A stretch of 64,000 nucleotides of DNA from an uncultured Candidatus Saccharibacteria bacterium (GCA_964445905.1 CAYUNN010000003.1:69312-133311); one strand, 5' to 3'. Shown: positions 1-14,582, counted from the stretch's first letter. Notes: generated from the letters alone by a model not told the origin. Numbers and translations are program-made.

Positions 1-1004
1 GGCGTTTTTATTTTAAGGTTTTCTATTAAAGGTTTTATCTGTTCTTCTATGTCTGGTTCTTTGACCCAATCTTTTTTCTCACAACCATTGCAATGTCCAT
101 AAATAATTCCTCTTTGTCTTTCCCAAGTTATTAGTCCTTCGCATTTTGCGCACCTTAGTAGTCTTTTAAATAAATAAAAATGTTTTGTATAGCTAGGAGT
201 TGATTTACTTTTTAGTATTTGTTGAACAGAGTTAAATAAATCTTCATTTATTAAAGGCTCTTGTTTACCTTTGTATATTTGGTTATTCCACTTTATCTTT
301 CCAAAATAAAAAGGGTCAGCCAATAATTCAGCCATTCTGCTCCTGCATAATTTATTTCCTTTTCTTGTTCTCAGCCCTTCTTTATACATTTTCTGAACCA
401 GTTTCTTTAAAGAGTATTCTCCGGAAGCATATAGGTTAAACATCTTTTTAATCAAAGAAGCTTTTTCTTTGTCTATTATGTGAATTTTATGGCCTTTTTC
501 TCCTACTGTTTTATAGCCTAGTGGTGGTTGGGTTGGGAGCCAGCCTTGAGCAATTTTCTCTTTTTGGCCCTTTTTAACTTCTTCTGAAAGATTATCAATA
601 TAGTATTGGGCAACTGAAACCTTGATATTCCAGATAAACTTTTCATTAGATTTAGAATCTTTATTTAGAATACAGTTTTCTTTAACAAAATGAACTTCTC
701 TTTCGGAATTTTCATTTATCCAATCATTTATACAAACAGCATCTTTTAGATTTCTGGTTAGCCTATCTATTTTTTCACAAATAATGATTTTAATATTATT
801 TTTCTTAGAATAGGCAACCATTTCGTTAAAAGCATTCCTTTTATAATATCCTTTAGCACTTTCAGAAATTGAAAATTTCTTAGCAATTCTAAAATCTTTC
901 CTATCAGCATAATCTTTTAGAAGTTTTTCTTGAGAGTCTAAAGAATAGCCAGTTTCTTCTTGCTCTCTGCTACTAACTCTACAAAATGATATACAAGGTT
1001 TCAT
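1..1004 (-). CDS. Large serine recombinase (resolvase/invertase family), 3'-truncated by window edge
   Basis: Reverse-strand translation from ATG at 1004: MKPCISFCRVSSREQEETGYSLDSQ...IKIIICEKIDRLTRNLKDAV... The catalytic Ser lies in the RVSSxxQ motif and the conserved DRLxR box is present. Downstream Cys pairs (CAKCEG...CNGCEKK) resemble the zinc-ribbon of large serine recombinases. The ORF runs off position 1. Confidence 0.8.
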   Translation of the reverse strand, partial: MKPCISFCRVSSREQEETGYSLDSQEKLLKDYADRKDFRIAKKFSISESAKGYYKRNAFNEMVAYSKKNNIKIIICEKIDRLTRNLKDAVCINDWINENSEREVHFVKENCILNKDSKSNEKFIWNIKVSVAQYYIDNLSEEVKKGQKEKIAQGWLPTQPPLGYKTVGEKGHKIHIIDKEKASLIKKMFNLYASGEYSLKKLVQKMYKEGLRTRKGNKLCRSRMAELLADPFYFGKIKWNNQIYKGKQEPLINEDLFNSVQQILKSKSTPSYTKHFYLFKRLLRCAKCEGLITWERQRGIIYGHCNGCEKKDWVKEPDIEEQIKPLIENLKIKT

Positions 1005-1010
1005 AGTATT

Positions 1011-1125
1011 TAAAGAGGCGCCCAGTAGCCCAATTGCTTTCCACGAAGGTCAGCTTTCGGTGGACGCCTCTCCAAAGAGCCGAAAGCAAATAAAAACTTC
1101 GTGGATTTAATAAAACTATGGGCTA
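1011..1125. promoter_or_regulatory. Inverted-repeat-rich segment immediately upstream of the recombinase start (candidate att/res site or structured leader)
   Basis: Four inverted-repeat pairs are visible: gaggcg(1014-1019)/cgcctc(1064-1069); gtagccca(~1023-1030)/tgggctac(~1118-1125); tccacgaag(~1040)/cttcgtgga(~1098); gctttcgg(~1053)/ccgaaagc(~1079). Confidence 0.3.
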
Positions 1126-1569
1126 CATCTTTATTATATTATTATTTTTTATAAATGTCGACACTTCTTTTGGCAAAAAACTTAAAGTGTTTATTTCTTC
1201 TAATTCATTAAGTTTTTCTTTAAGATTTTCAATGTTTTGAATTAAAGACTTAACTTCTTCTGGGTTGAGTTTATATTGTTCAATTACTATGGTAGAAATA
1301 ATTATTTGAAGTAGTAAACTATCTTTTATTAAGGAATTTATAGTTAGCTGTAAAAATCTTATAGCTTCTTTTTGCTTTAGATATACTTCCTCGATATTAT
1401 TTTTGTTAATTTTAGAAAGTATTTTTAAAGTATTTATAACATCTAAAATTTCTAGCCCTTTTTTATCTGGATTATTAAGAGATTTTATAATAAGTTCTAA
1501 CTTCTCTTCAGAATTTAGATTATCATATAGCATCTTAATTTTATTTTCTTTTTGACAGAACATTTTCAA
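1123..1569 (-). CDS. Hypothetical protein (148 aa), mobile-element cargo
   Basis: Intact ORF co-oriented with and adjacent to the recombinase. No recognisable motifs. Predicted coiled-coil/helical. Confidence 0.45.
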   Translation of the reverse strand: MKMFCQKENKIKMLYDNLNSEEKLELIIKSLNNPDKKGLEILDVINTLKILSKINKNNIEEVYLKQKEAIRFLQLTINSLIKDSLLLQIIISTIVIEQYKLNPEEVKSLIQNIENLKEKLNELEEINTLSFLPKEVSTFIKNNNIIKM

Positions 1570-1903
1570 GGTTTTTGATTCTTTCCTCTAGTTCAGAATC
1601 TAAAGCTTTTAAGCTTATGTTTAATAAATATCCGACACAGTTAGCTTTTTTAACAGATATTTCATCTACTCTTACCTCTCTAACCAACTTATTTATTAAA
1701 TCTATTACATCTCTATTATTTTTAACCATAATCGTGTCTTTTATCAGAGGATATTCTTTATGAGCATTTTTTCCTCCTTGAGAAAGAGCTTTCTTTCTTT
1801 TTTCTTTTACGTCTGGATTTTGAGAGTGCATAAAGCAGTACCTGTCGCCTGTTAAGGTTTTTGCATTACATCTTTTGCCATTTTTAGCATACTCACATCT
1901 CAT
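1541..1903 (-). CDS. Hypothetical Zn-finger-like protein (120 aa)
   Basis: N-terminal C-x5-C-x10-C-x2-H pattern (RCEYAKNGKRCNAKTLTGDRYCFMH). Overlaps its neighbour by 29 nt in operon-like fashion. Confidence 0.45.
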   Translation of the reverse strand: MRCEYAKNGKRCNAKTLTGDRYCFMHSQNPDVKEKRKKALSQGGKNAHKEYPLIKDTIMVKNNRDVIDLINKLVREVRVDEISVKKANCVGYLLNISLKALDSELEERIKNLENVLSKRK

Positions 1904-1933
1904 ATTTTATAAGCCGACTTATAGGGGTGGTAA

Positions 1934-2488
1934 TTATTTCCATTCTATATCTGATTCTTTACCAGCAAATTCTCTAAAATCATTTTGTCCGTGAATTACC
2001 CACCATTTCTTATTTTCGTCTCTCCACATTGACTTGTTCCAAAAATAAGGTTTTTTTGAAGAATCCTCCTTTTTATTTTTAATCCTTAAATTTGTTTCCT
2101 TACTATGGACAAGACTATCAGTCGCAGTGTGGTTAGACTGTTGGTCTTTCTTGATTGGACTATCAGCCCATTCGCTTTTATCCAATAGCAAGTACCTATT
2201 ATTAAGTTTTTTACCGACCCTTATTTTTTTAATAATATTGAATTTTTCAAGTATTTTTATGGCTCTTCCTACTTGTCTGGAAGATATTTTTAACTCTTCT
2301 GCAATTTTTCTTTGAGATGGCCAACAGAATTGTTCCTTGTTTGAATGTCTGCATAAAGATAAATAAACTCCGGTAGAATAAATGCCGCATTTTTTTGCAT
2401 AACCATTCAAATATAGGTCGTCAACAAAGAATTTAGTTTTTCCCCTTAAGTCTCTTATCTCAAATTTTTCACTGTCTTTGTTTTTCAT
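1934..2488 (-). CDS. HTH DNA-binding protein, replication-initiator/regulator-like (184 aa)
   Basis: Helix-turn-helix segment ...KIAEELKISSRQVGRAIKILEKFNII..., similar in pattern to phage/plasmid replication or regulatory proteins. Confidence 0.5.
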   Translation of the reverse strand: MKNKDSEKFEIRDLRGKTKFFVDDLYLNGYAKKCGIYSTGVYLSLCRHSNKEQFCWPSQRKIAEELKISSRQVGRAIKILEKFNIIKKIRVGKKLNNRYLLLDKSEWADSPIKKDQQSNHTATDSLVHSKETNLRIKNKKEDSSKKPYFWNKSMWRDENKKWWVIHGQNDFREFAGKESDIEWK

Positions 2489-2649
2489 ATTTACCTTTAT
2501 TTATTGCGATTCTTCTATCTATTTTTAATAACAAGTTAAAATAATCTGAGAGATTTTTCTCCAGTTGTTTTATTTCTTCATCAGTAGCTGCTTCCTTTAA
2601 CTCTTCTTCCATAGCCCTTTTCAGTTTTTTCTGGGTTTCAGTTAACATA

Positions 2650-2907
2650 TTAAAAATTAGAATAAATAAAATTCTTTAGATTTTTCTGGGCATTAAATAA
2701 ACTTAATACTGGCAGTTTGATTTTATCTTTAAAGTAATCTTCTGATACTTTGTCTATGTTTTTTTCTTGTTTAAATTTAAAGCCAACCTTCTTAGGGTTT
2801 AATTTATCTAGTCCGGTTAATTCATATCCTAGCACTACTAACGTGCTAGCAAGTCCCAAATCAAATGTCATAAATTCATTTTTTTTCATAAGAGAATTTA
2901 TAATCAT
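2650..2907 (-). CDS. Hypothetical small protein (85 aa)
   Basis: ORF in element orientation. No motifs. Confidence 0.3.
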   Translation of the reverse strand: MIINSLMKKNEFMTFDLGLASTLVVLGYELTGLDKLNPKKVGFKFKQEKNIDKVSEDYFKDKIKLPVLSLFNAQKNLKNFIYSNF

Positions 2908-2925
2908 TAAAATACAAATAAAAAA

Positions 2926-2950
2926 CTACACTTTAAGTGTAGTCTTTTTA
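2926..2950. terminator. Hairpin (actacac-tttaa-gtgtagt) with flanking T/A runs; possible bidirectional terminator
   Basis: Perfect 7-bp stem at 2926-2944. T-run follows on the + strand and, after reverse complement, on the minus strand downstream of the 2986..3579 gene. Confidence 0.35.
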
Positions 2951-2985
2951 TTGGTGAGTCAACTGAGAATTTTGTGAATTACTTT

Positions 2986-3579
2986 TTATTTAACTCGGGT
3001 TATTGTTTTTTTACTCCATATAAATATTTTTTTACCAAATCCATCCATTGTTCTTTTGTTAACTGCCTCCATCGCATCATAAACTACTCTAAGCTCTTTT
3101 TTTCCATTTTTCTTAGGTTCTTCCCCTGTCATCTTTTCATATATTATAGACCAATCTACAGGTTCTTCTATCTGGAATTCAAACATTGCCCTGCAAAGGA
3201 AGTGTTCATTTTTAAAAGCTGGTAGCTGACAAGCCTTATTTTTTAATTTAAGTTGTGCCTTATTGTCTAAAAATTCTATATTCTTATTGCTGATTATTAT
3301 GTCTTTTTCTAGTAATTCAGATATATCAATATTTTTTAAAAGATGTATCTTAAAAATAGGTATTGCTCCTTTGTGTATATGTATTATTTCAGAGGTTATT
3401 CCCTCGAATTTAATAAGTCCTAAGTCATCTAGTTCTTGAAGCATATCCGCAATCTCTTTATAGTTTACTTCTAAACTTTCTGGGAAGCTGTCTGCAGTAA
3501 TTTCTATAGGCGGTTCTTTCACTGCCTCCTTTTTTATAATATTATAAATACTTTTTAATTTTACTTTTTTGTTGCTCAT
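2986..3579 (-). CDS. Hypothetical protein (197 aa), first gene of the minus-strand element operon
   Basis: Intact ORF. Possible winged-helix-like C-terminal half. No confident family. Confidence 0.45.
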   Translation of the reverse strand: MSNKKVKLKSIYNIIKKEAVKEPPIEITADSFPESLEVNYKEIADMLQELDDLGLIKFEGITSEIIHIHKGAIPIFKIHLLKNIDISELLEKDIIISNKNIEFLDNKAQLKLKNKACQLPAFKNEHFLCRAMFEFQIEEPVDWSIIYEKMTGEEPKKNGKKELRVVYDAMEAVNKRTMDGFGKKIFIWSKKTITRVK

Positions 3580-3629
3580 TATAATTATAATTTTTAGTCT
3601 TTATTTTAAAATAACAAACTTGCCACATT

Positions 3630-3658
3630 TTGACAAGTAAGTTTTAAAATTGTAGTAT
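3630..3658 (+). promoter_or_regulatory. Sigma70-like promoter TTGACA-N17-TAGTAT upstream of the HTH/hsdM operon
   Basis: ttgaca at 3630-3635, a 17-nt spacer, then tagtat at 3653-3658. The CDS ATG at 3667 gives a very short leader. Confidence 0.35.
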
Positions 3659-3666
3659 GACTTAAT

Positions 3667-3846
3667 ATGAATTGTAAGTTTTTAACTGTTAAAGAGGTTG
3701 CAAAAAAGCTACGAGTTTCAGAACGTAGTGTGTTTCGCTATATTCATAATAGTAAGTTAAAAGCTAGCAAAGTTGGTTATTGGAGAATTGAAGAGAAAGA
3801 CTTAAAAAAGTTTATTAAAGATAATTTAAATATAAGACAAAGTTAA
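3667..3846 (+). CDS. Excisionase-family helix-turn-helix DNA-binding protein (59 aa; below the ORF-track length cutoff)
   Basis: Translation MNCKFLTVKEVAKKLRVSERSVFRYIHNSKLKASKVGYWRIEEKDLKKFIKDNLNIRQS matches the 'LTxxEvAxxLxvSxxTvyRxi...G.wRi' pattern of excisionase/MerR-like HTH domains. It ends 1 nt before the hsdM start. Confidence 0.6.
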   Translation: MNCKFLTVKEVAKKLRVSERSVFRYIHNSKLKASKVGYWRIEEKDLKKFIKDNLNIRQS

Positions 3847-3847
3847 A

Positions 3848-5287
3848 ATGACCCCAAACGAATCATTATCAAAAGCTGATATAAAAAAAGCCTGTGATAT
3901 TCTTAGGCGAGACGATGGCGTAGGTGCCGGTAACTATGTTGAACAATTATCTTGGCTGCTTTTCTTGCGTGTTTTTGAAAATGTAGAACTTCAGCTTAAA
4001 GAAATAAAAGAGGCAGAGGGCGATAAACATCAAGATATTATTGATAAGGAATATCAATGGTCTTCTTGGGCCAGAAAAGATTGGAAAGATAAAGATGAGT
4101 TAGTTCATTTTGTTTCTAACAAGCTCTTTCCTTATTTAAGAAGTCTTAAGGGAACAAATGAAAAAGAGAAAATAGGAGAAATTTTTAGAGAATTAGACGG
4201 AAACAAAATTCGCTCCCCCTTCACATTGCTAGATGTAATTGAGATTCTGGATAAAGTTGATATGGTTCACTATCAAGACACGCACCTTTTGTCGCAGGTT
4301 TATGAGGAAATATTGCAGGAAATGGGCGCTGAAGGTGGTTGGGCCGGCGAGTTCTATACGCCTCGTCCGATTATCCGTTTAATGGTTAATATTATAGAGC
4401 CAAAATTAGGACAAAGTCTTCTCGACCCATTTGTCGGCTCAGCTGGTTTTTTAGTAGAAAGTTTTCATTATATTCAAGAAAATCTTAATAAAAAATCAAA
4501 AACTGGCCTAAGAGAATGGAAAATTCTACAAAATAAAACTTTTTATGGTCAAGAAAAAAAGCCACTTCCTTATTTGATTGGAACAATGAATATGATTCTT
4601 CATCAGATTTTAGTTCCTAATCTTATAAGAGCAAACACCTTAATGGAAGATGTTCATAATGTTTCGGAAAATAAAAAAGTAGATGTAATTTTGACAAATC
4701 CGCCGTTCGGAGGAAAAGAACATAAAAGCGTACAGAATAATTTCCCAATTCCGGTAGCTGCTACAGAAGGGCTTGCCTTGCAGTATGTAATGAGGCATTT
4801 AAAAAATGGTGGACGTTGCGGCATTGTATTACCAGAAGGACAGATTTTATTTGGTGGAGGAGCATTTCAGAAAATAAGAGAAGAGCTTTTAACAAAATTT
4901 AATGTTCATACAATTATATCATTGCCTCAAGGAGTTTTTGCTTCAATGGGGGCAGGGGTTAAAACAAATTTAGTTTTCTTTGAGAAAACAGGGCCCACAA
5001 AAGAAATTTGGTATGGCGAGATAAGCGGTAAATTTACCAAAAAGATTGTTGTTATAGATTCTAATTTAGAAGATGTTTATAAGAAATGGCAAAAGAGAGA
5101 GATTTCAGAAAATAGCTGGATAGTTCCTATTAAAGAGATTAAAGAACGTAATTTTGATATTTCTCCTAAGAATCCAAATAAATTAGCAGAAGAGGAGCTA
5201 CCAGAACCAAAAGAATTAGTAAAAAGAATAGAAGAATCCCAGAAAGAAGCAAAGCAGATTTTAGATAATATAAAAAAGATTTTGTAA
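3848..5287 (+). CDS. hsdM: Type I restriction-modification system, N6-adenine DNA methyltransferase subunit M
   Basis: Carries the N6-Mtase motif ILTNPPFGG, an AdoMet-binding region and the HsdM N-terminal domain. Translationally coupled to hsdS. Confidence 0.93.
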   Translation: MTPNESLSKADIKKACDILRRDDGVGAGNYVEQLSWLLFLRVFENVELQLKEIKEAEGDKHQDIIDKEYQWSSWARKDWKDKDELVHFVSNKLFPYLRSLKGTNEKEKIGEIFRELDGNKIRSPFTLLDVIEILDKVDMVHYQDTHLLSQVYEEILQEMGAEGGWAGEFYTPRPIIRLMVNIIEPKLGQSLLDPFVGSAGFLVESFHYIQENLNKKSKTGLREWKILQNKTFYGQEKKPLPYLIGTMNMILHQILVPNLIRANTLMEDVHNVSENKKVDVILTNPPFGGKEHKSVQNNFPIPVAATEGLALQYVMRHLKNGGRCGIVLPEGQILFGGGAFQKIREELLTKFNVHTIISLPQGVFASMGAGVKTNLVFFEKTGPTKEIWYGEISGKFTKKIVVIDSNLEDVYKKWQKREISENSWIVPIKEIKERNFDISPKNPNKLAEEELPEPKELVKRIEESQKEAKQILDNIKKIL

Positions 5288-5289
5288 CC

Positions 5290-7128
5290 ATGAAAGAATG
5301 GAAAAATTATAAATTAAATGAACTCGTGGATTATAGAAATGGACTTTGGGTTGGTAAAAATCCTCCTTTCGTAACAGCAAAGGTTATAAGGGTAACGGAG
5401 TTTAACAACGATGGAACACATAACCTTGAAACCGCAAGAGAATTAAAAGTTGAGAGCAAGAAATTAAAAGAACGGGTTATTAAGCCGAATCAGATATTAT
5501 TAGAAAGGTCTGGTGGAGGAGAAAAAAAACCGGTAGGGAGAGTAATTCTCTTCAAGGATAATATTAAAGATAGTACTTATTCATTTAGTAATTTCACTAC
5601 TTTGTTGATTCCAAATGAATCAGTTGTTAATCCAAGATTTCTTTTCTATTATCTTCATTTCTTTTATATATCTGGACAAACTAATCATTATCAGAAAGCG
5701 ATGATTGGTATTAGGAATCTGGAATTTAAAAGGTATTTAGAACAAGATATTCCTATACCGCTCGAAAGCAGTCAGCCAGACCTTGAAGAGCAAAAAAGAA
5801 TAGCTGATAAAATTGATAAATTATTTGTAGAAATTGATAGAGGGATTATAGATACAAAGGTTTTTCTTTTAGATTCTCGCAAAATATTTCAAAGTAAGCT
5901 AAAAAAGATTTTTGATGCTGAGCTTTCTAAAAATTGGAGAATAAAAAAACTCGAAGAATTAGCTGCTAATACTGCCTATCCAATAGGAGATGGCGACCAT
6001 GGTCAAATTAAGCCAAGTTCTTATAGAAACGACGGTATTCCATATGTAAGAGCCGCAGATATAGGTTGGGGGGAGTTCACGCCAAATGGAATGGTTTACA
6101 TTTCTGAAGAAACTCATAAAAATAATTTAAAGAGCGAACTAAACCCTGGCGATATTTTAATTGTAAAAACAGGAGCTACTATTGGTAAATGTTGTATTGT
6201 GCCTAATGATATTAAAAAGGCCAACACAACTGCATCCGTTGGTAAAATAACTGTAAATAAAGATAAAGTTCTCCCCAGGTGGGTTTTGTTAAGATTCTTA
6301 TCCCCATCCTTTTTGAAGTTCATTTGGTCAATTAGTCATAAAGCAGCTCAGCCGAGTTTTAACAATAGAGATATAAAATTATTTGAAATTCCTCTACCAT
6401 TTAAGAATAACAGACCAGATTTGGACGAGCAAAAGAAAATCATTATAAGATTGGATAAAATTCAAGAACAAGCTAAGAAACTTGAAGAAAAATATCAGGA
6501 ACAGTTAAATAATTTCAGCAAGCTGAAGCAATCCATATTGCAGCAGGCTTTTGAGGGCAAGTTGGTGACAGCAAAAGAGCAAGCACCAGAGAAAATAAGC
6601 ATTTTTCCTATTCAGCAAGCTGTTGGAGCAATTCTTCAAAGATTTGAAAGAGGAGAGATGGTTGTAGCTAAAATCTTATATTTGGCCCAGACCATAAATA
6701 AAGTTTCTTTTTCTATACCATTCACGCCACAAAATTTTGGACCATATGATAAAGCAGTAAAACGTGCTGTAACCGCAGGATTGAGCAGAAATAATAATTT
6801 TTTTTCCAAGAAAAAATATAGTAAGGGTTTTGTTTATGGGTTGTCTCAAGGCTCTGAAAAATTGTTTAATTATAGTAATGCAAAAACGTTGAGAGAAATG
6901 AATAAATTTTTAGATGAAATGATGCCTTATTTTAAAAGAGTTAAAAGTGCTGACATTGAAAGGCTTGCAAGCGCTTGTGAAATAATAAAAAACAATAAAA
7001 CCATAAACAATGAAGAAGTTTATAAAGAACTTTCAAAGTGGAAGCCAGAAAAATTTACAGCCCAAGAAGTTGACAGAAGTTTAAATTTTATTAAATCTAA
7101 GGGATGGGATAAAATCTTAATGAAATAA
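5290..7128 (+). CDS. hsdS: Type I RM specificity subunit S with an atypical ~190-aa C-terminal extension (Panacea/SocA-like)
   Basis: Two target-recognition domains are separated by conserved coiled-coil repeats (LEEQKRIADKIDKLFVEIDRG; LDEQKKIIIRLDKIQEQAKKLEE). The protein is 612 aa versus a typical ~400-450 aa. Its tail carries ...VVAKILYLAQTINKVSFSIPFTPQNFGPYDKAV..., resembling the KLqKLLYfAq...GPv signature of DUF4065. Confidence 0.88.
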   Translation: MKEWKNYKLNELVDYRNGLWVGKNPPFVTAKVIRVTEFNNDGTHNLETARELKVESKKLKERVIKPNQILLERSGGGEKKPVGRVILFKDNIKDSTYSFSNFTTLLIPNESVVNPRFLFYYLHFFYISGQTNHYQKAMIGIRNLEFKRYLEQDIPIPLESSQPDLEEQKRIADKIDKLFVEIDRGIIDTKVFLLDSRKIFQSKLKKIFDAELSKNWRIKKLEELAANTAYPIGDGDHGQIKPSSYRNDGIPYVRAADIGWGEFTPNGMVYISEETHKNNLKSELNPGDILIVKTGATIGKCCIVPNDIKKANTTASVGKITVNKDKVLPRWVLLRFLSPSFLKFIWSISHKAAQPSFNNRDIKLFEIPLPFKNNRPDLDEQKKIIIRLDKIQEQAKKLEEKYQEQLNNFSKLKQSILQQAFEGKLVTAKEQAPEKISIFPIQQAVGAILQRFERGEMVVAKILYLAQTINKVSFSIPFTPQNFGPYDKAVKRAVTAGLSRNNNFFSKKKYSKGFVYGLSQGSEKLFNYSNAKTLREMNKFLDEMMPYFKRVKSADIERLASACEIIKNNKTINNEEVYKELSKWKPEKFTAQEVDRSLNFIKSKGWDKILMK

Positions 7129-7129
7129 T

Positions 7130-9583
7130 ATGGCATTATCTGAAGCAGATATAAAAGCAAAATATATTGACCCTAAAATTCACGAGAGTGGATGGGCAGA
7201 GGAACTTTTAACTCGCGAATATCCAATTACGCAAGATAGGTTTTTTGTTGAAGGAGAAGAGTATAAGAAAATAAATAGCAAGAAGTTTGCTGACTATGTT
7301 TTAAAATATGATGATATAAATATTGCCTTAATCGAGGCGAAAGCCGAAGATGAAAGCCCGGGAAAACATTTAAGTCAGGCTCAAGATTATGGAAAAAGGT
7401 TAGATGTCCCTTTTGTTTATATTTCTAATGGCAAAAAAACAATTTTGTATGACAGGAGAAATTTAAAAACCCAAGATGTTGACACATATTTAACTCCAGA
7501 AGAAATGTACCAAAGTTATCTTGAGTGGAAGGGGCTCAATAAGGCAAAGGTAGATGCTTTAAATTATCCACCTTATATTTCACCAACACAAAAGCCAAGA
7601 TTTTATCAAGAAGCTGCTGTTAAGGCTGTTATAGAGAATATTGTTAAGGGCAATAAAAAGACACTATTAACTATGGCGACAGGGACCGGTAAGACTTATG
7701 TTTCTTTTCAAACAGTATGGAAATTAGTTAAATCCAAACACTTTCATAGAGTTCTATTTTTGACAGATAGGATAATTTTAAGAGATGATGCTTATGAAAG
7801 AGACTTTGAGCCATTTGGAGAGGCAAGAGAAAAAATAAAAGGAGGTAAATTTAATAAGAATCGTAATATTTATTTCTCTACCTATCAAACATTATTTGCT
7901 GAAGATTTATATAAGAAAATTCCTAATGAATTTTTTGATTTAGTTATTATTGATGAATGTCATCGTTCTCGTTATGGAGATTGGGGTATAATTTTAGACC
8001 ATTTTAATACTGCTTATAATTTTGGCATGACAGCTACCCCTAAACGTCAAGACAACATTGATGTTTATGAATATTTTGGCGAACCGGTCTATGAATATAG
8101 TATGGGCCAAGCCATAGAAGATGGTTTTCTTGTCCCGTATAAGATTTATAAAATAAAAACAAACCTTTATAAGAAAGGACTTCACACCAGTGATGCAGAA
8201 GAAGTTATTTATGATGATGAAATAGACCCCGATGAGTTGAAGGATTTTTATGAACCATCTGAATATGAAAGAGCTATAAGCATTCCAGACCAAATTGAAA
8301 CTTTATCCAAAAAGGTAGTTGAGATTTTAGATAAAACAAATCCATATGGAAAAACCATTATATTCTGTGTAGATATGGCTCACGCCCAAAGCGTTAAAGA
8401 TGAGCTTAATAGGGCAAAGGGTAACGAAGAATATGCTACCAGAGTAGTTGCAGAAGATAAGGATAATTTAAGACCCTTTAGAGATAAAGAAATGACAATG
8501 CCTGTAATTGCTACTACTGTTGATTTGCTTTCTACTGGGGTAGATATACCAAACCTTGAGAATATTATTTTTATGCGTCCTGTAAGCTCTCAGGTATTGT
8601 TTAAACAGATTATTGGACGTGGTTCTAGATTATGCGAAGGAAAGGGATTTTTTAGAATAATTGACTTTACTAACGCTACTAGACTAATTGACGAATGGGA
8701 TGTACCGAAACCACCGCCTCCTCCACCGGAGCCGCCCGAAGAACCTAAGGCTCCCTTCGATAAACTTCTTTTTGGAGTGTTGGTTGATGCTAAAACAGAA
8801 AAACCAATTCCAAAGGCAAATCTTATAGCTAAAATTAGCAGATGGTTTAAGATAGGAACAACTGATAAAAATGGGATATTTAATCTTTTCGGATTACCCT
8901 CCAACGATACTATTGGCTTCTCTGCAGAGAAAGATGCTTATAAAAAATTCAATAAGAAAGTTAAGCCTCAAGAATCAGAAAGTGATGCTCCTTATGTTTT
9001 TAGTTTAAAGTCAGAAAAAGCTAAAGGCAAAAAAATAAAAATTAAGGGAATTGAGGTAACTATTGAAGAAGAAATAGAGGTTGAGTTTGAGGGCAAAAAG
9101 CTATCTTATGCAGAATACAGAAAATATTCTAAAGAGAATATTAAGAAGAAGATTCACTCAAGTGATGAATTAAGAGAAATTTGGCTGACTCCGGAGAAGA
9201 AAAAGAAGTTTCTTAAAGATTTAGAGAGCAGAAACATTAACATAGAACTTATTAAATCCATAGACAATTTTGGAGATAGTGATAGTTTTGATATTATTGC
9301 TCACCTTGCTTTTAATTCCCCTCTTTTAACCAGAGAAGATAGAGTTAAACAGTTTCTGCGTAATAATAATCAAAACATAACTCAACACGGCCAAGCCATT
9401 CAGGAAGCTATTTATAATATTTTAGATATGTATAAATATACGGGGGAGGAGAATTTATCTTCTCAAATATTTATGCTTCCGAATATGAATGCTCAAAAGA
9501 AAGAGGTCCAAAGTAAATATCCTAATGGATTAGCAGGGTTTATGAATTTCTTAAAACAAAAAATATATAGCGAAGCCAAATAA
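7130..9583 (+). CDS. hsdR: Type I RM restriction subunit R (helicase-nuclease)
   Basis: Has an N-terminal PD-(D/E)xK region (IALIEAKAED), Walker A TMATGTGKT and DEAH-like IIDECHRS. A Pro-rich linker PKPPPPPPEPPEEP is followed by an EcoEI-R C-terminal-like domain. Confidence 0.9.
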   Translation: MALSEADIKAKYIDPKIHESGWAEELLTREYPITQDRFFVEGEEYKKINSKKFADYVLKYDDINIALIEAKAEDESPGKHLSQAQDYGKRLDVPFVYISNGKKTILYDRRNLKTQDVDTYLTPEEMYQSYLEWKGLNKAKVDALNYPPYISPTQKPRFYQEAAVKAVIENIVKGNKKTLLTMATGTGKTYVSFQTVWKLVKSKHFHRVLFLTDRIILRDDAYERDFEPFGEAREKIKGGKFNKNRNIYFSTYQTLFAEDLYKKIPNEFFDLVIIDECHRSRYGDWGIILDHFNTAYNFGMTATPKRQDNIDVYEYFGEPVYEYSMGQAIEDGFLVPYKIYKIKTNLYKKGLHTSDAEEVIYDDEIDPDELKDFYEPSEYERAISIPDQIETLSKKVVEILDKTNPYGKTIIFCVDMAHAQSVKDELNRAKGNEEYATRVVAEDKDNLRPFRDKEMTMPVIATTVDLLSTGVDIPNLENIIFMRPVSSQVLFKQIIGRGSRLCEGKGFFRIIDFTNATRLIDEWDVPKPPPPPPEPPEEPKAPFDKLLFGVLVDAKTEKPIPKANLIAKISRWFKIGTTDKNGIFNLFGLPSNDTIGFSAEKDAYKKFNKKVKPQESESDAPYVFSLKSEKAKGKKIKIKGIEVTIEEEIEVEFEGKKLSYAEYRKYSKENIKKKIHSSDELREIWLTPEKKKKFLKDLESRNINIELIKSIDNFGDSDSFDIIAHLAFNSPLLTREDRVKQFLRNNNQNITQHGQAIQEAIYNILDMYKYTGEENLSSQIFMLPNMNAQKKEVQSKYPNGLAGFMNFLKQKIYSEAK

Positions 9584-9604
9584 TTATTTTAAAAAAATAA
9601 AAAT

Positions 9605-10531
9605 ATGCCCATATTTCAAATAAAAAATAAGAAACTAGTAAAAATTAAAGAAAAAGTTGCTCCTTTAGAAAAAGATATTCAAAAAGTAACGGAAGAAAAT
9701 TTAGAAGAAATATTCGGATTAAAATATATTTCTTCTGAATTTCCTTTAAATAATTTAAGAATTGATACTCTTTGTTTTAATCCGGAAACAAATTCTTTTG
9801 TAATCATAGAATATAAAAAAGATAGGAGTTTTAGTGTCATAGACCAAGGCTTTGCTTATCTTGCCTTAATGCTTAATAATAAAGCAGATTTTCTTTTAGA
9901 ATATAATGAGAAAACAAAAAAGCAGCTAAATAGAGATAATGTAGATTGGTCTCAATCTAAGATAATTTTTATTTCTCCTTACTTTACTCCTCACCAGAAA
10001 GGCGCTATAAACTTTAAAAACCTACCTCTTGAGTTATGGGAAGTCAATTTTTTTGGCAGTGATTTGATTGAATATGAACATATTGAACCAATTGAAACCT
10101 CTGAAAACATAGAAAAGATTACTGGAGGAGATAAGTTGATAAAAAGAGTGGCTAAAGATATTAAGCCTTACGACTTAGATTCGCATCTTAAAAAAGCATC
10201 TGACAAAACAAGAGATTTATATAGCTCTTTGAAAGAAAAAATATTTGAGTTGGGTGATGTTAAAGAAATTCCAAAACAACTTTATGTTGCCTACCGTATA
10301 GGAGACAGTCGTATAAATTTCTGTTCAATACATTTCTACAAAGAGAAGCTTGAAATTTATATTTTAATAGCCGATAAGAATCTTGATGACCCAAGGAAAA
10401 TGTCAAAAAAGGTTCCAAAGTCATATGGTTGGGCCAAGAATCTAAAAGTGTTCAACATAACATCAGAGAAAGACTTACGCTATGCAATGAATCTTATCGA
10501 GCAATCCTACGAGTTCAATAAAAACCGATAA
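9605..10531 (+). CDS. PD-(D/E)xK nuclease-fold protein (NucS/DUF91-like N-terminus + uncharacterised C-terminal domain), RM-associated
   Basis: D-x(n)-E-x-K pattern in ...LRIDTLCFNPETNSFVIIEYKKDRS...VIDQGFAYLALM. Tightly packed after hsdR with a 21-nt gap. Confidence 0.45.
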   Translation: MPIFQIKNKKLVKIKEKVAPLEKDIQKVTEENLEEIFGLKYISSEFPLNNLRIDTLCFNPETNSFVIIEYKKDRSFSVIDQGFAYLALMLNNKADFLLEYNEKTKKQLNRDNVDWSQSKIIFISPYFTPHQKGAINFKNLPLELWEVNFFGSDLIEYEHIEPIETSENIEKITGGDKLIKRVAKDIKPYDLDSHLKKASDKTRDLYSSLKEKIFELGDVKEIPKQLYVAYRIGDSRINFCSIHFYKEKLEIYILIADKNLDDPRKMSKKVPKSYGWAKNLKVFNITSEKDLRYAMNLIEQSYEFNKNR

Positions 10532-10545
10532 TTTTAGCTTGAAAC

Positions 10546-11397
10546 ATGAAGAAAGAATTAAAAGAATCAATAGAGAAAAGCGGAAATAAGCTTCATTTAG
10601 AAACAGCTGCTATTCTTGAAAAAAATGAATGGAATGTTGATTTAAGTTCTTATTATTATGATGATACTCAAAGAAAACCAAGAGAAATTGATATAATAGC
10701 TGATAAAGATTTTTCGATTAAAAATGAAGGTAAAGAGGTTGGGAAATTCAAGCTATTTTTATTCATTGAATGTAAATACTTAAAAAGTGATATAGGATTT
10801 ATAATGCGTGAAAATAATAGAAAGCAAGCAGAGGAGGCCATGATTTTTAGTGAAATAAATAAAGATAAAAATCTATTTTCTTATTTGGAAGGAATGCACG
10901 ATTATGGTTCTAATAAATTTACACATCATTATTTGAAAGATGAGTTTGTTGGAAAACTTTATAATACTACATCTGAGGACGAAAATAAGATTTTTAATGC
11001 GCTTACTCAGCCCATAAAATCCTTAATCTTCTTTCAGGAAAGTCTTTATAAAATGGAGCCGGAAGTTGGGGTTAAAAAGGCAATTTATTATCCTCTGGTT
11101 GTTTATTCGGGCATTGATGGAATATATCCAATTGAAGAATATGATAACTTAAATGACTTAAAGACAAAGGAAGGGGTGATATTTGCCTTAAATTATTCTT
11201 ATAAAAGTCCTACTAAAACAAAAACAGTTTATGGTGCGCAAGTTCCGATACTAACAACTCAACCCTTTTATATTGATTTTGTAAAAAAAGACGCCCTAGG
11301 TAGATTTTTAAGTAACGTTATTGGACAGGAAGCAAAAAGGTTTCAAAGATATTTTTCTAGCGTGGAGGAACAAAAAGATTTAAATAAAAATATATAG
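10546..11397 (+). CDS. Restriction-endonuclease-like fold protein (hypothetical)
   Basis: Second PD-(D/E)xK-like motif ...EIDIIADKD...LFLFIECKYL... in the same orientation as the RM genes. Confidence 0.4.
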   Translation: MKKELKESIEKSGNKLHLETAAILEKNEWNVDLSSYYYDDTQRKPREIDIIADKDFSIKNEGKEVGKFKLFLFIECKYLKSDIGFIMRENNRKQAEEAMIFSEINKDKNLFSYLEGMHDYGSNKFTHHYLKDEFVGKLYNTTSEDENKIFNALTQPIKSLIFFQESLYKMEPEVGVKKAIYYPLVVYSGIDGIYPIEEYDNLNDLKTKEGVIFALNYSYKSPTKTKTVYGAQVPILTTQPFYIDFVKKDALGRFLSNVIGQEAKRFQRYFSSVEEQKDLNKNI

Positions 11398-11416
11398 CAT
11401 TTTAAAATCTTAAGAC

Positions 11417-11650
11417 ATGAAAGAAACAATTAAGATACGTCATAAAAGAAAAGGATATAAAAAATTTTTAGCAGAAGAAGAAAGAGGATATTATCCGAGC
11501 AAAGATAAAAATAAATACCCATTAGGGGTTGATAAAATAAGAATAATTGATAAAGGAAAAAATCTGTATATAGAAAAAGTGATAGACAAAAAAACAGGGA
11601 AGATTATTAGGAACATAGAAGAATTATTAACCAAGCATAAAAAATTATAA
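11417..11650 (+). CDS. Hypothetical small basic protein (77 aa)
   Basis: Lys/Arg-rich ORF in the operon-like array. No motifs. Confidence 0.3.
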   Translation: MKETIKIRHKRKGYKKFLAEEERGYYPSKDKNKYPLGVDKIRIIDKGKNLYIEKVIDKKTGKIIRNIEELLTKHKKL

Positions 11651-11653
11651 AAT

Positions 11654-11944
11654 ATGTCATTAGAAAAATTATCAGACCGAATTGCCAAAAATCAATTTTT
11701 ATTCTCAGCTTTGTTGATTTTAATACTAACAGTTTACTTAATAGTCAATGAAGCTGACATCAAATATATAAATTTAGGGTTAATAACTTTCCTTTATTTT
11801 TATGTTTTATTTTTAACTAACTCTTTTTTTATGAAGGTTATTTATAAAGAAAAGGCTCAAGACCATAGCAGGTGGAAAGAATATATATTATTTTTCTTGT
11901 TTACTATTATATGGTTATTTATTTTGTTTAAATTTTATGAGTAA
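11654..11944 (+). CDS. Small membrane protein (96 aa, ~3 TM)
   Basis: Hydrophobic helices LFSALLILILTVYLIV, GLITFLYFYVLFL and ILFFLFTIIWLFILF. Overlaps the next gene's start. Confidence 0.4.
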   Translation: MSLEKLSDRIAKNQFLFSALLILILTVYLIVNEADIKYINLGLITFLYFYVLFLTNSFFMKVIYKEKAQDHSRWKEYILFFLFTIIWLFILFKFYE

Positions 11945-12596
11945 ATTAAGATTCATTACGGAACAACTGATAGAAGCTAACAATCTACTTTTTAATTCCA
12001 TTAAAACTTTGTATAAAGAAGATGATAAAAATAGTGGGAAATTATATCACCCCATATCTGTGATGTTGTTATCTTTTTGTTTTATTGATTGCTTAAGAAG
12101 GCTTAATTATATTTTTGAAAATGGAAAAGACGGTAAGGAGAATTTTAATAACAAAATTAACTATGAGGACTTTTTGAACCGTTTTATTATAAACAACGAT
12201 AAATATAATCAGTATAATTACTCTTTTGATGCAAATAGTTTATATCAGATAAGAAATGACCTAGTCCACTCTTTTGGATTAAAGAGGATATATAATAATG
12301 ATATTTTTAATTTTGTAGGAGGTGATTTATTTGAGAGCAAAAAAAATGTAGAAGACCTTAATATTTTAGGAAAACTAAATAATCCTTTAGCTAGAAACAT
12401 ACATACTATAACATTTAAATCTTTTTTAGAAATAATAAAAGAGGGTATGATGAAGATGTTAAGAGAGTGGGAAAAGAAGACTCTTAAAGATAAAGATTCA
12501 GAATCTTTTAAGAAGAATATAAATGATTTACACTTAGATTTAAAAGATATTACATATTTTTATTTAGGTTCAAGGTTAAAAAATAAAGTCGAATAA
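11937..12596 (+). CDS. Hypothetical protein with candidate HEPN-like R-x4-H motif (abortive-infection-like)
   Basis: ...SLYQIRNDLVHSFGL... fits the HEPN Rx4-6H signature. It follows a tiny membrane protein inside a defense island. The family assignment is unverified. Confidence 0.35.
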   Translation: MSKLRFITEQLIEANNLLFNSIKTLYKEDDKNSGKLYHPISVMLLSFCFIDCLRRLNYIFENGKDGKENFNNKINYEDFLNRFIINNDKYNQYNYSFDANSLYQIRNDLVHSFGLKRIYNNDIFNFVGGDLFESKKNVEDLNILGKLNNPLARNIHTITFKSFLEIIKEGMMKMLREWEKKTLKDKDSESFKKNINDLHLDLKDITYFYLGSRLKNKVE

Positions 12597-12615
12597 AAAT
12601 TAAATTATTATTACT

Positions 12616-13149
12616 ATGAAAAAATATATCGTAATTATTGTAGCTTTGATTCTTGTTGGAGGATTTTCTATTGTTAGTGCATCTCAAGAAGGAAATCCTT
12701 TTCAGAAAATATGGACTGCAATAAATAATCTTCAAGAGCAAATCTATAGTATAGAGCTTACTCCCGGCCCAGAAGGACCGCAGGGACCAGAGGGTCCAGG
12801 GGGTCCAGAGGGTCCGCAGGGACCGGAAGGACCACAGGGAATACAAGGTCTGGAGGGACCTGCAGGTCCTACTATTTTTCCTGAACCAGCATTTGATAGT
12901 GGTTGGGTAGAAATACCACCATATAATTCTGTAACAGATATTCACCACGATGTAGGAGGAGATGTAAATGATTATTTCATTTATGCTACATATCTTAGGC
13001 ACAATGATACCCTTACATCACATAGAACCGCAGCCGATGCAATATGGTGGGAAGATGTAGAACCTAATAATATACAGTTAATAACTAATGGAGATGTAAC
13101 TAATGAATTTAAGGCAGCTAGAATAAGAATTTGGGTTATAGGAGAATAA
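12616..13149 (+). CDS. Secreted collagen-like triple-helix repeat protein with globular C-terminal domain
   Basis: N-terminal signal/TM ([18 protein letters not shown]). Eleven perfect G-x-y triplets ([35 protein letters not shown]) sit at nt ~12769-12875. A C-terminal domain of ~95 aa follows. Confidence 0.75.
12769..12875 (+). repeat. 9-bp-unit collagen-like (GPEGPQ) tandem repeat inside the CDS
   Basis: ggaccgcagggaccagagggtccagggggtccagagggtccgcagggaccggaaggaccacaggga. The copy number stays in frame. Confidence 0.7.
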
Positions 13150-13192: not shown

Positions 13193-13451
13193 TTATGCTA
13201 GTAATTTTTGGGCTAGATTAAGAGTTAATTCAATATTTTGAATATAATCTGCCCATTTAGATGTTCGAAAACTGTCCCATCTGGGGAGCCGATAATTTCA
13301 AAATAAAACACCTTTTAGAAACGGTGTTTAATTTTTTTAATTCTCCTTATTCAAAGAGCAAACAAAAATTGTTCAACAGCGCGTTTTTTCTTGTCGAGAT
13401 CAGGGCACTTTGGGAGTGTTCGAACATAAGGAATATAATTAAAATTAATTT

Positions 13452-13556: not shown

Positions 13557-14582
13557 ATGAATAGAAAATACAAAATTAAAGAATTTATCAAGGTTAAAAA
13601 ACGGGTTTCTTCTACAGAAGTGGCGCGGCACTTCGGTTTTACTCGTCAGTACGCAAGCCAGCTTTTAAGAGCTATGGTTAATGCTGATACAATTGTTAAA
13701 TTTGGTTCTACCCGCTCTGCCTTCTATACTTTACCGGAATTAATTGACGAAGTTGGACCAACGGCGGTTGAGCGTCGTTTTAAGAATAAAAATGTAAAGG
13801 AGCATGAAATTTTTGATGATTTGATTTCTGCCTTTCCCGCTTTTCGTATTGTTCCCGAAAACATCCAAAGCATAGCACATTACGCATTTTCGGAAATGCT
13901 TAATAATGCTATTGAGCACTCACGCTCTGAAAATATTGAGGTCAAATTAGAAAGTAACGGCATGATTAGATTTGTTGTAGACGACTTTGGTATAGGTATA
14001 TTTAGAAATGTCATGCATCAGCGTAAACTTAAGTCAGAATTAGAAGCAATGCAGGATTTATTAAAAGGCAAGGTCACCACGGATCCAAAAGCGCATACAG
14101 GCGAAGGTATTTTCTTTACTTCGAAAGCAGCTGATCGTTTTGTTTTAGAAAGTTTTGGATACAAGATGATCGTAGATAATACGATTCCCGATGTTTTTTT
14201 TCACGAAGAAGAGCGGGTAAAACGCGGTACGCGTGTTACTTTTGCTATTGCACGAAATAGCAACAGACATCTAAATAAAATTTTTGAAAAATATCAATCA
14301 AAACCCGGCAGTTACGCTTTTGACAAAACCGAAGTACGTATTCGTTTATTTATAATGGGGACTGTCTATGTTTCGCGTTCTCAAGCGCGTCGTGTTTTAG
14401 TTGGTTTGGAAAAGTTTAAGAAAATTATTCTTGATTTCGACCGAGTGCCCAATGTTGGCCAGGCATTTGCTGATGAAATTTTTAGAGTTTTTCAAAGTCG
14501 TTACCCTAATATCTCTATTGAACCGATTAATATGAACAAGACCGTTCGTTTTATGGTCGAAAGAGTCGAAAAGCCGAATTGA
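13557..14582 (+). CDS. HTH + GHKL (HATPase_c, anti-sigma-kinase-like) + STAS-like (DUF4325-like) fusion protein
   Basis: N-terminal HTH (SSTEVARHFGFTRQYASQLLRAM). Then an N-box SEMLNNAIEHS, G1 VVDDFGIGI and G2-like HTGEGIFFTS. A ~90-aa STAS-like C-terminal domain follows. GC is visibly higher than in the neighbours. Confidence 0.55.
   Translation: MNRKYKIKEFIKVKKRVSSTEVARHFGFTRQYASQLLRAMVNADTIVKFGSTRSAFYTLPELIDEVGPTAVERRFKNKNVKEHEIFDDLISAFPAFRIVPENIQSIAHYAFSEMLNNAIEHSRSENIEVKLESNGMIRFVVDDFGIGIFRNVMHQRKLKSELEAMQDLLKGKVTTDPKAHTGEGIFFTSKAADRFVLESFGYKMIVDNTIPDVFFHEEERVKRGTRVTFAIARNSNRHLNKIFEKYQSKPGSYAFDKTEVRIRLFIMGTVYVSRSQARRVLVGLEKFKKIILDFDRVPNVGQAFADEIFRVFQSRYPNISIEPINMNKTVRFMVERVEKPN

Follow-up and report, generated by a model that had tools for sequence, protein, structure and literature searches.

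A Type I restriction-modification system with an appended tail of probable defence modules on a mobile island of an uncultured Saccharibacteria bacterium

The window analysed here is a stretch of 64,000 nucleotides (nt) from an uncultured Candidatus Saccharibacteria bacterium (GCA_964445905.1, CAYUNN010000003.1:69312-133311), and the subject of this report is the run of five genes, g1 to g5, at positions 9605-12596. We propose, with a probability of about 0.7, that these genes are the cargo tail of an island behind a complete Type I restriction-modification (R-M) system, and that they most likely represent a stack of independent defence modules. The R-M system would be followed by two independent nuclease modules, g1 and g2, and then by a coupled trio that ends in the HEPN-like protein g5. 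The predicted modules would act as nucleases or RNases, would be triggered, and would function against phage. The arrangement is of a known kind: g1 is already catalogued, and g2 and the HEPN-like g5 are new members of old superfamilies.

All five genes belong to a single tightly packed array on the + strand (3667-13149) that begins with an HTH_17 gene and ends with a gene for a collagen-like protein (Table 1). The HTH_17 gene ends 1 nt before hsdM, and hsdM, hsdS and hsdR are adjacent and intact by both Pfam and PADLOC; the Type I system is complete. By Pfam, the C-terminal domain of HsdR is of the EcoEI type. The successive spacings from hsdR through g1, g2, g3, g4 and g5 to the collagen-like gene are 21, 14, 19, 3, -8 and 19 nt. 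A consensus scan placed the strongest promoter-like site at 3630-3658, directly upstream of the HTH_17 gene, and found one terminator-like site inside the array, the regional count being not above that of shuffled sequence; an Rfam scan found no non-coding RNA in the region. We infer that the g1-g5 tail is co-transcribed with the R-M genes. The GC content steps down from 0.32-0.34 in the hsd genes to 0.29 in g1 and g2 and to 0.23-0.245 in g3-g5, which suggests that the cargo modules were acquired separately, in steps. Because the product of each of g1 to g5 has protein-level relatives on other contigs, the five can be taken as real genes.

The first of them, g1, is a member of the PDC-S18 family. 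The PADLOC model PDLC04945 (PDC-S18) matched g1 with an E of 1.1e-104 (residues 1-302 on model positions 1-301 of 302), and residues 192-305 matched DUF5655 (PF18899) with an E of 3.9e-13 and 49.8 bits, against a Pfam cutoff of 24. When g1 was aligned with the plasmid homologs of Acinetobacter, Cupriavidus, Rhizobium, Lichenicola and Streptomyces (six sequences in all, 22-39% identity), E22, Q26, E30, E45, R52, D54, E69, K71, Q81 and Y85 were invariant, and the conservation of the catalytic residues thus spans Patescibacteria-like sequences to Proteobacteria and Streptomyces. The pattern D..ExK..QxxxY is the signature of RecB/NucS-type nucleases. Comparison of the g1 profile with NucS (2vld) brought the motifs into register over g1 residues 41-93 at an E of 1.1, below significance, and the HSDR_N_2 nuclease domain of Pfam matched g1 weakly (E 0.017); the Pfam scan of g1 gave no NucS_C match. 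The NucS/RecB-like PD-(D/E)xK domain is the predicted DNA-cutting part of g1.

The relatives of g1 are found repeatedly with R-M genes. On the Acinetobacter and Cupriavidus plasmids the gene order is hsdS-g1-hsdR, with all three genes on one strand and 10-55 nt between neighbours, and on the Rhizobium plasmid the g1 relative adjoins hsdMSR. Other relatives adjoin a Type II R-M system, an integrase with MazEF, or a caspase-like gene, and those of Lichenicola, Streptomyces and Saccharobesus lack Type I genes altogether. The PDC families are candidates only; their definition rests on genes that lie within BREX, DISARM or Type I R-M systems (bioRxiv 10.1101/2024.01.29.577857). A literature search found nothing naming PDC-S18 and nothing relevant on DUF5655.

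The second gene, g2, belongs to an unnamed family of putative PD-(D/E)xK nucleases. It had no family match in Pfam, PADLOC, NCBIfam or PHROGs, and sequence and profile searches of the PDB were empty. A search of 5.8 billion clusters returned 57 clusters of relatives, none of them functionally named, and a genome scan returned 37 loci, mostly in Patescibacteria, with one Woesearchaeota genome and a few other phyla; the distribution is almost confined to metagenome-assembled genomes of Patescibacteria and DPANN. Judged by where the homologs occur, the host is probably of the Patescibacteria type. Among 34 aligned sequences S12, W29, Y36, D39, P45-R46-E47, D49, C76 and K77 were invariant, and E75 was kept in at least 90%, so that PREIDIIA ... 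FIECK is a textbook PD..ExK motif. In the AlphaFold2 (AF2) model (pLDDT 88.6, pTM 0.88) the core is alpha-beta-beta-beta, and the motif residues fall on two consecutive strands, predicted at 44-60 and 63-78, of which strand 2 carries D49 and strand 3 carries E75-x-K77. No Foldseek match of g2 in the PDB was significant; the leading matches were almost all PD-(D/E)xK proteins (R2 RLE, AF1548 (1y88), MspJI, NotI, Cas4 and SPARDA). A lax Pfam scan of the 34 members gave one recurrent weak match, UPF0102/YraN, in five of them (best E 0.043). UPF0102/YraN proteins are related to Holliday-junction resolvases.

R-M or defence genes lie beside the g2 homolog in at least 13 of the 37 loci. In two of these (L011 and L012) the g2 homolog is embedded in an R-M system, with the gene for a BcgI-like methylase on one side and that for its S subunit on the other; in five (L013, L017, L020, L027 and L028) it is preceded by Type I or Type III-like enzymes, a KAP NTPase or helicases; in L035 it adjoins Shedu; and in L005, L008, L009 and L014 methylases are near. 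Methylase models likewise dominated a PADLOC scan of 102 neighbours of g2 homologs. In an all-against-all BLAST of the neighbours, nothing recurred apart from methylases, S subunits and a few two-member pairs, and no conserved partner emerged. Since no partner family is shared among the neighbours, g2 behaves as a single-gene module. Most g2 relatives have no cognate methylase adjoining them, and for this reason we propose that g2 would need a trigger, or a modification of the DNA, in order to cut it, in a manner like that of Type IV or abortive-infection systems and not of a classical Type II enzyme. Neither g2 nor g5 has a relative in IMG/VR or on 72,556 plasmids, and a phage origin of the two genes was rejected on these results.

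Two of the g2 loci deserve a description of their own. In the Candidatus Woesearchaeota archaeon UBA10192 (L017, positions 3-8819), hsdM and hsdR genes whose products are 65-67% identical to those of the window are followed by a KAP NTPase gene and a g2 homolog, a gene set that points to exchange of the R-M module with its appended cargo between ultra-small bacteria and archaea. The second, L003:2280-8780, is a serine-recombinase element with the same backbone as the island in the window, as it has a recombinase 29% identical to that of the window and homologs of the HTH_36 protein and of ORF197. Its cargo contains no R-M system and consists of a 97-amino-acid open reading frame (ORF), a DUF4145/PD-T7-4-like protein (PD-T7-4 in PADLOC) and, next after the latter, a g2 homolog with 47% identity.

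Much of this had been anticipated by the original prediction, which a model had made from the sequence alone. The five ORFs that it listed directly behind hsdR and on the same strand are all present where it had put them. Its spacing of 15-22 nt is near enough to the gaps measured here. The motifs that it quoted (RIDTLCF..VIIEYKK in g1, EIDIIADKD..FIECKYL in g2 and IRNDLVH in g5) were all found, and they are not chance strings because they are also conserved positions of each family. Its 77-amino-acid basic protein and its 96-amino-acid protein with about three transmembrane (TM) segments agree with the isoelectric point and the hydropathy given in Table 1. It had also named two PD-(D/E)xK nuclease-like proteins, whose catalytic residues are indeed kept across the g1 and g2 families, and had guessed at DUF5655 or NucS, and g1 is a DUF5655 protein with a NucS-like nuclease domain listed as PDC-S18. 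When the region was scanned with PADLOC, the complete Type I R-M system and PDC-S18 (g1) were recognised, and g2-g5 had no match. As for the co-occurrence of homologs with R-M genes, relatives of g1, g2 and g5 turn up repeatedly within or next to R-M systems and other defence genes, and together with the strain-variable, mobile nature of the cargo this supports the view of the region as a defence island.

That the cargo is mobile follows from comparison with other contigs. The flanking housekeeping proteins occurred on 6-7 contigs, and the island proteins on 1-2. In four sister contigs the identity to the window is 99.9% to the right of 13285, that position included, and the sequence to its left is unrelated. 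One of the four, L054, represents the empty site, in which dnaG, rpoD, a gene for a 223-amino-acid protein and an intron-interrupted tRNA gene are followed directly by the HATPase_c/DUF4325 gene. The target tRNA gene (L054:7486-7761) contains a group I intron (RF00028, 99.6 bits, E 3e-26) at L054 7509-7714. A core of GGAGC, made up of the last part of the acceptor stem together with the discriminator base, is common to attB, attL and attR, and comparison of the three junctions sets the island from about -538 to 13284, a length of ~13.8 kb that runs from the recombinase through the collagen-like gene. The recombinase gene encodes 524 amino acids and extends left of the window to about -567, as seen on the Logan contig SRR2989655_6165 (positions 1-1574). 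Neither a repeat search within the window nor one for a further copy of the tRNA end found the island ends, and the Logan contig has no terminal overlap, hence it is not circular. The island is a large-serine-recombinase integrative element at the 3' end of a group-I-intron-containing tRNA gene, and the comparison supports the g1-g5 stretch as its strain-variable cargo.

Several further observations concern the integration site. The counterpart of the target tRNA gene in the window's genome lies just left of the window start, and ARAGORN finds the target tRNA gene only with the intron removed. The recombinase ORF continues past attL, antisense to the 3' end of the tRNA gene, and meets no stop before the contig end; the C-terminus of the recombinase would accordingly differ between the integrated and the excised forms. 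Immediately right of the island, at 13557-14582, is the gene for a protein with HTH, HATPase_c and DUF4325 (STAS-like) domains, which we assign to the host backbone since the empty-site contig has it as well. At the GGAGC/CGATAATTTC junction (window 13285-13299), contigs L055, L057 and L058 carry unrelated DNA with flanks 99.9% identical; in L057 the DNA left of the shared junction encodes the C-terminus of a UvrD-like helicase. With alternative DNA at the same junction, the site looks like an insertion hotspot with alternative cargo.

The location of all of g1-g5 inside a serine-recombinase island raises an alternative, namely that the genes serve the island itself, as addiction or stabilisation modules with a toxin-like nuclease or RNase, or in DNA processing during recombination or replication of the element, with g2, for example, as an Hjc/YraN-like structure-specific nuclease. 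Serine recombinases also occur near the g2 homologs of L003, L019, L021, L028 and L032, and UPF0102/YraN is the one Pfam family that recurs, if weakly, for g2. However, the relatives of g1 and g2 are often embedded in R-M operons that have no recombinase near them, g2 and g5 are not accompanied by a conserved partner or antitoxin gene, and the backbone held in common with L003 (recombinase, HTH_36 protein and ORF197) is separate from the variable cargo. We consider service to the island unlikely. A role of g1, and possibly of g2, as an accessory subunit of the Type I enzyme, acting in restriction modulation, DNA-end processing or restriction alleviation, would suit the same-strand position of g1 relatives between hsdS and hsdR, the weak similarity of g1 to the HSDR_N_2 nuclease domain, and the g2 homologs between methylase and S genes in L011 and L012. 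It appears less probable again, as the Lichenicola, Streptomyces and Saccharobesus relatives of g1 have no Type I genes, R-M neighbours are missing for most g2 relatives, and g1 and g2 of the window come after hsdR and not inside the operon.

At the far end of the tail, g5 is a rare protein. A word-indexed search found two relatives, and an exhaustive profile search, run over 1.84 billion representatives, gave 6 strong and 4 weak ones. The resulting alignment of 11 sequences has nine invariant columns only, R106 and H111 among them, and the motif context is Y-x-[IVM]-R-[NCS]-x-[LI]-x-H-S, in which the position after R is N, C or S. The AF2 model (pLDDT 86.5) is mostly helical, with the motif in helix 99-112 and an inserted beta-hairpin region. 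PADLOC, NCBIfam, PHROGs and PDB sequence and profile searches with g5 were empty. In profile-profile comparison by hhalign only the motif of g5 aligned, on the R-N-x3-H of Swt1-like and HepT-like proteins. Membership of g5 in the HEPN superfamily rests on the conserved R-x4-H and the helical model and is unconfirmed. The contexts of the g5 relatives are R-M islands in three of six loci (two of which, L043 and L044, are duplicates). In L041 the order is hsdR, an HD protein, a 103-amino-acid ORF, a GmrSD_N+HEPN_Swt1 protein, a 259-amino-acid protein and then the g5 homolog; in L043/L044 a helicase, a Type IIG enzyme, a small TM protein and a 116-amino-acid protein precede the g5 homolog, and a CBS/HepT-like protein and a NucS_C protein follow it. 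The contexts in L001, L040 and L042 are uninformative. No MNT-type antitoxin partner accompanies g5.

The genes between g2 and g5 have few relatives. For g3 the sole relative found is 49% identical and lies in L020, at a distance of 3 kb from a g2 homolog; it has a NERD nuclease gene on one side and on the other a 303-amino-acid ORF, after which comes a trypsin-like protease gene. For g4 the single relative (P0074) is 75% identical, is found among small TM ORFs, and is followed, with an overlap, by an unrelated 200-amino-acid N-anchored CARDB-like protein; no g3 homolog, g5 homolog or R-M gene was found at that locus. Neither g3 nor g4 has a family match in Pfam, PADLOC, NCBIfam or PHROGs, and PDB sequence searches with both were empty. 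In the window, g4 starts 3 nt past g3 and overlaps g5 by 8 nt, and the overlap argues for coupled expression of g4 and g5 at this locus. We propose that g3, g4 and g5 would form a translationally coupled trio, of which the likely effector is g5, a probable HEPN-type RNase that would use R106 and H111.

The original prediction had gone further and paired the small TM protein with a HEPN-like one. This pairing did not hold: the g4 relative precedes an unrelated protein, a g4 homolog is absent from all five contexts of g5 relatives (six loci, with L043 and L044 as duplicates), and the one small TM ORF in these contexts, that of L043/L044, is unrelated to g4 and two genes upstream of the g5 homolog. 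The HEPN-like assignment of g5 stood in part, in that the R-x4-H motif is invariant, but Pfam, profile-profile and Foldseek searches gave nothing significant. All-against-all BLAST of the neighbours of g5, g4 and g3 found no conserved partner. A conserved multi-gene system, or a TM+HEPN pair, was rejected on the ground that no conserved partners were found among the neighbours of g2, g5, g4 and g3.

A number of results weigh against the proposed stack of defence modules. PDC-S18 itself is a candidate-grade defence family only. The Foldseek matches of g2 are weak (E about 0.01-2 over ~70 residues, TM-score about 0.2), ~190 of its residues have no Foldseek match in the PDB, in about two thirds of the g2 loci no defence gene is recognised among the neighbours up to two genes away, and some neighbours are plainly housekeeping, such as MgsA and MFS. 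For g5, none of the 11 family members matched a HEPN family in Pfam at E up to 10; hhalign against HepT-like/CBS, Swt1-like HEPN and DUF4145 proteins gave probabilities of 0.04-2%; the best Foldseek match in the PDB had an E of 2.8, with HEPN toxins and IRE1 among the non-significant matches; and the best in BFVD, an unnamed entry, had an E of 0.05. The context samples are also very small (n=6 for g5, n=2 for g4 and n=2 for g3). A cell-envelope or surface module made of g3, g4, g5 and the collagen-like protein, with the R-x4-H of g5 in a structural or ligand-binding role, is very improbable: g4 is a membrane protein whose only relative precedes an N-anchored CARDB-like protein among small TM ORFs, a gene with a signal peptide and collagen-like repeats follows g5 by 19 nt, and g5 has no significant HEPN match, but the g5 relatives of L001, L040 and L041 have no membrane or collagen-like neighbours, those of L041 and L043 lie among R-M, GmrSD, HepT-like and NucS-like genes, R and H are two of only nine invariant columns, as expected of catalytic residues, and the GC content of the collagen-like gene (0.40) contrasts with that of g5 (0.245).

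Table 1. Features of the island and its integration site. Positions are those of the window unless another contig is named; aa, amino acids; pI, isoelectric point.
Feature	Position	Strand	Evidence
g1, 308 aa, PDC-S18 family: N-terminal NucS/RecB-like PD-(D/E)xK domain and C-terminal DUF5655	9605..10531	+	PADLOC, Pfam
g2, 283 aa, unnamed family of putative PD-(D/E)xK nucleases	10546..11397	+	conserved motif, AF2 model, homolog contexts
g3, 77-aa basic protein	11417..11650	+	pI 10.0, 24 K+R in 77 aa
g4, 96 aa, three hydrophobic segments	11654..11944	+	hydropathy: about residues 13-31, 36-60, 74-93
g5, 219 aa, rare, mainly helical, R106-N-x3-H111	11937..12596	+	alignment, AF2 model
HTH_17 protein, 59 aa (excisionase/AlpA-like), first gene of the array	3667..3846	+	Pfam HTH_17 9.1e-13
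hsdM, Type I methyltransferase, 479 aa	3848..5287	+	Pfam N6_Mtase 4.8e-61, HsdM_N; PADLOC MTase_I 6.8e-142
hsdS, specificity subunit, 612 aa	5290..7128	+	Pfam Methylase_S 4.1e-19; PADLOC Specificity_I 1.8e-42
hsdR, restriction subunit, 817 aa	7130..9583	+	Pfam ResIII 1.5e-40, EcoEI_R_C 1.7e-14; PADLOC REase_I 8e-134
Large serine recombinase (island integrase), 334 N-terminal codons in the window	1..1004	-	Pfam Resolvase 1.5e-22, Recombinase 5.7e-16
HTH_36/RepL-like DNA-binding protein, island backbone	1934..2488	-	Pfam HTH_36 3.1e-13; homolog adjoins recombinase in L003
Secreted collagen-like protein, last gene of the island	12616..13149	+	signal peptide; Pfam Collagen 4.2e-5 (below curated cutoff)
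attR core GGAGC, right boundary of the island	13285..13289	+	sister-contig comparison
attB: left flank ...CCTGCCCGC / core GGAGC / right flank CGATAATTTC	L054		
attL: left flank ...CCTGCCCGC / core GGAGC / right flank AGTTCTGC...			
attR: left flank ...CCCATCTGG / core GGAGC / right flank CGATAATTTC			

Other genes of the array show some features of their own. HsdS has a C-terminal extension of ~180 amino acids (residues about 430-612) without a Pfam or PDB match. Within residues about 528-618, HsdR contains a poly-proline linker (PKPPPPPPEPPEEPKAP) and, between the linker and EcoEI_R_C, a weak CarboxypepD_reg-like beta-sandwich match (E 1e-3, below cutoff). The collagen-like gene, which lies inside the island boundary, encodes GPx repeats and has a 9-nt periodicity.

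R-M systems with embedded or appended defence genes are known to be a productive place to find new anti-phage systems, and g2 and g5 add two candidate families that are absent from PADLOC-DB v2.0.0, Pfam, NCBIfam and PHROGs and that come from Patescibacteria and DPANN, lineages with a poorly charted immune repertoire. As a tentative proposal, to which we would give somewhat less than even odds, g2 may be a new single-gene restriction or abortive-infection nuclease family, largely restricted to ultra-small prokaryotes, and g5 a new, very rare clade of HEPN-like RNases, both carried as interchangeable cargo within R-M operons or behind them on serine-recombinase islands that target tRNA genes. 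If this is true, episymbiotic lineages in which most known defence systems are missing would have private defence families that the present catalogues overlook. The cleanly delimited island and its empty-site control provide exact constructs for testing. The value is incremental, in that the result is a useful candidate pair and not a new principle.

Among known systems, the closest to g1 is PDC-S18, from the 'guilt-by-embedding' set (Payne et al. 2024, bioRxiv 10.1101/2024.01.29.577857), which g1 matches end to end, with DUF5655 and on the same strand as a Type I R-M system. It differs in that g1 of the window comes after hsdR and not between hsdS and hsdR, and in that its host is of an uncultivated, low-GC lineage. 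The catalytic D..ExK..Q..Y segment of the C-terminal RecB-like domain of NucS/EndoMS (PF01939; 2vld) aligns with g1, and these residues are invariant in the g1 family; unlike NucS/EndoMS, g1 lacks the N-terminal DNA-binding domain and has DUF5655 instead. For g2, the core of the model, the best fold matches and the frequent lack of a cognate methylase resemble solitary PD-(D/E)xK nucleases (Type IV enzymes of the Mrr/MspJI type, Hjc/YraN-UPF0102, AF1548 (1y88) and the R2 RLE), but g2 falls in no named family and no modification-reading domain is recognised in it. The protein g5 resembles HEPN RNases (HepT/SO_3166, Swt1-like HEPN, DUF4145/PD-T7-4 and HEC-08) in its invariant R-N-x3-H within a helix, in its mostly helical model, and in that its relatives occur in R-M islands beside true HEPN proteins; it differs from them in having no significant sequence, profile or fold similarity and no MNT-type antitoxin, and in the beta-hairpin insert of the model. 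Finally, although PrrC, RloC and GmrSD have no relative among g1-g5, the arrangement as a whole is like that of the defence genes appended to Type I and similar systems (PrrC in EcoprrI, and BrxU/GmrSD in BREX, Hma and R-M systems), in which accessory genes for nucleases or RNases share the strand of the hsd genes and are found near them, and embedded genes are co-oriented with their host system in 96.7% of cases (Payne et al., bioRxiv 10.1101/2024.01.29.577857).

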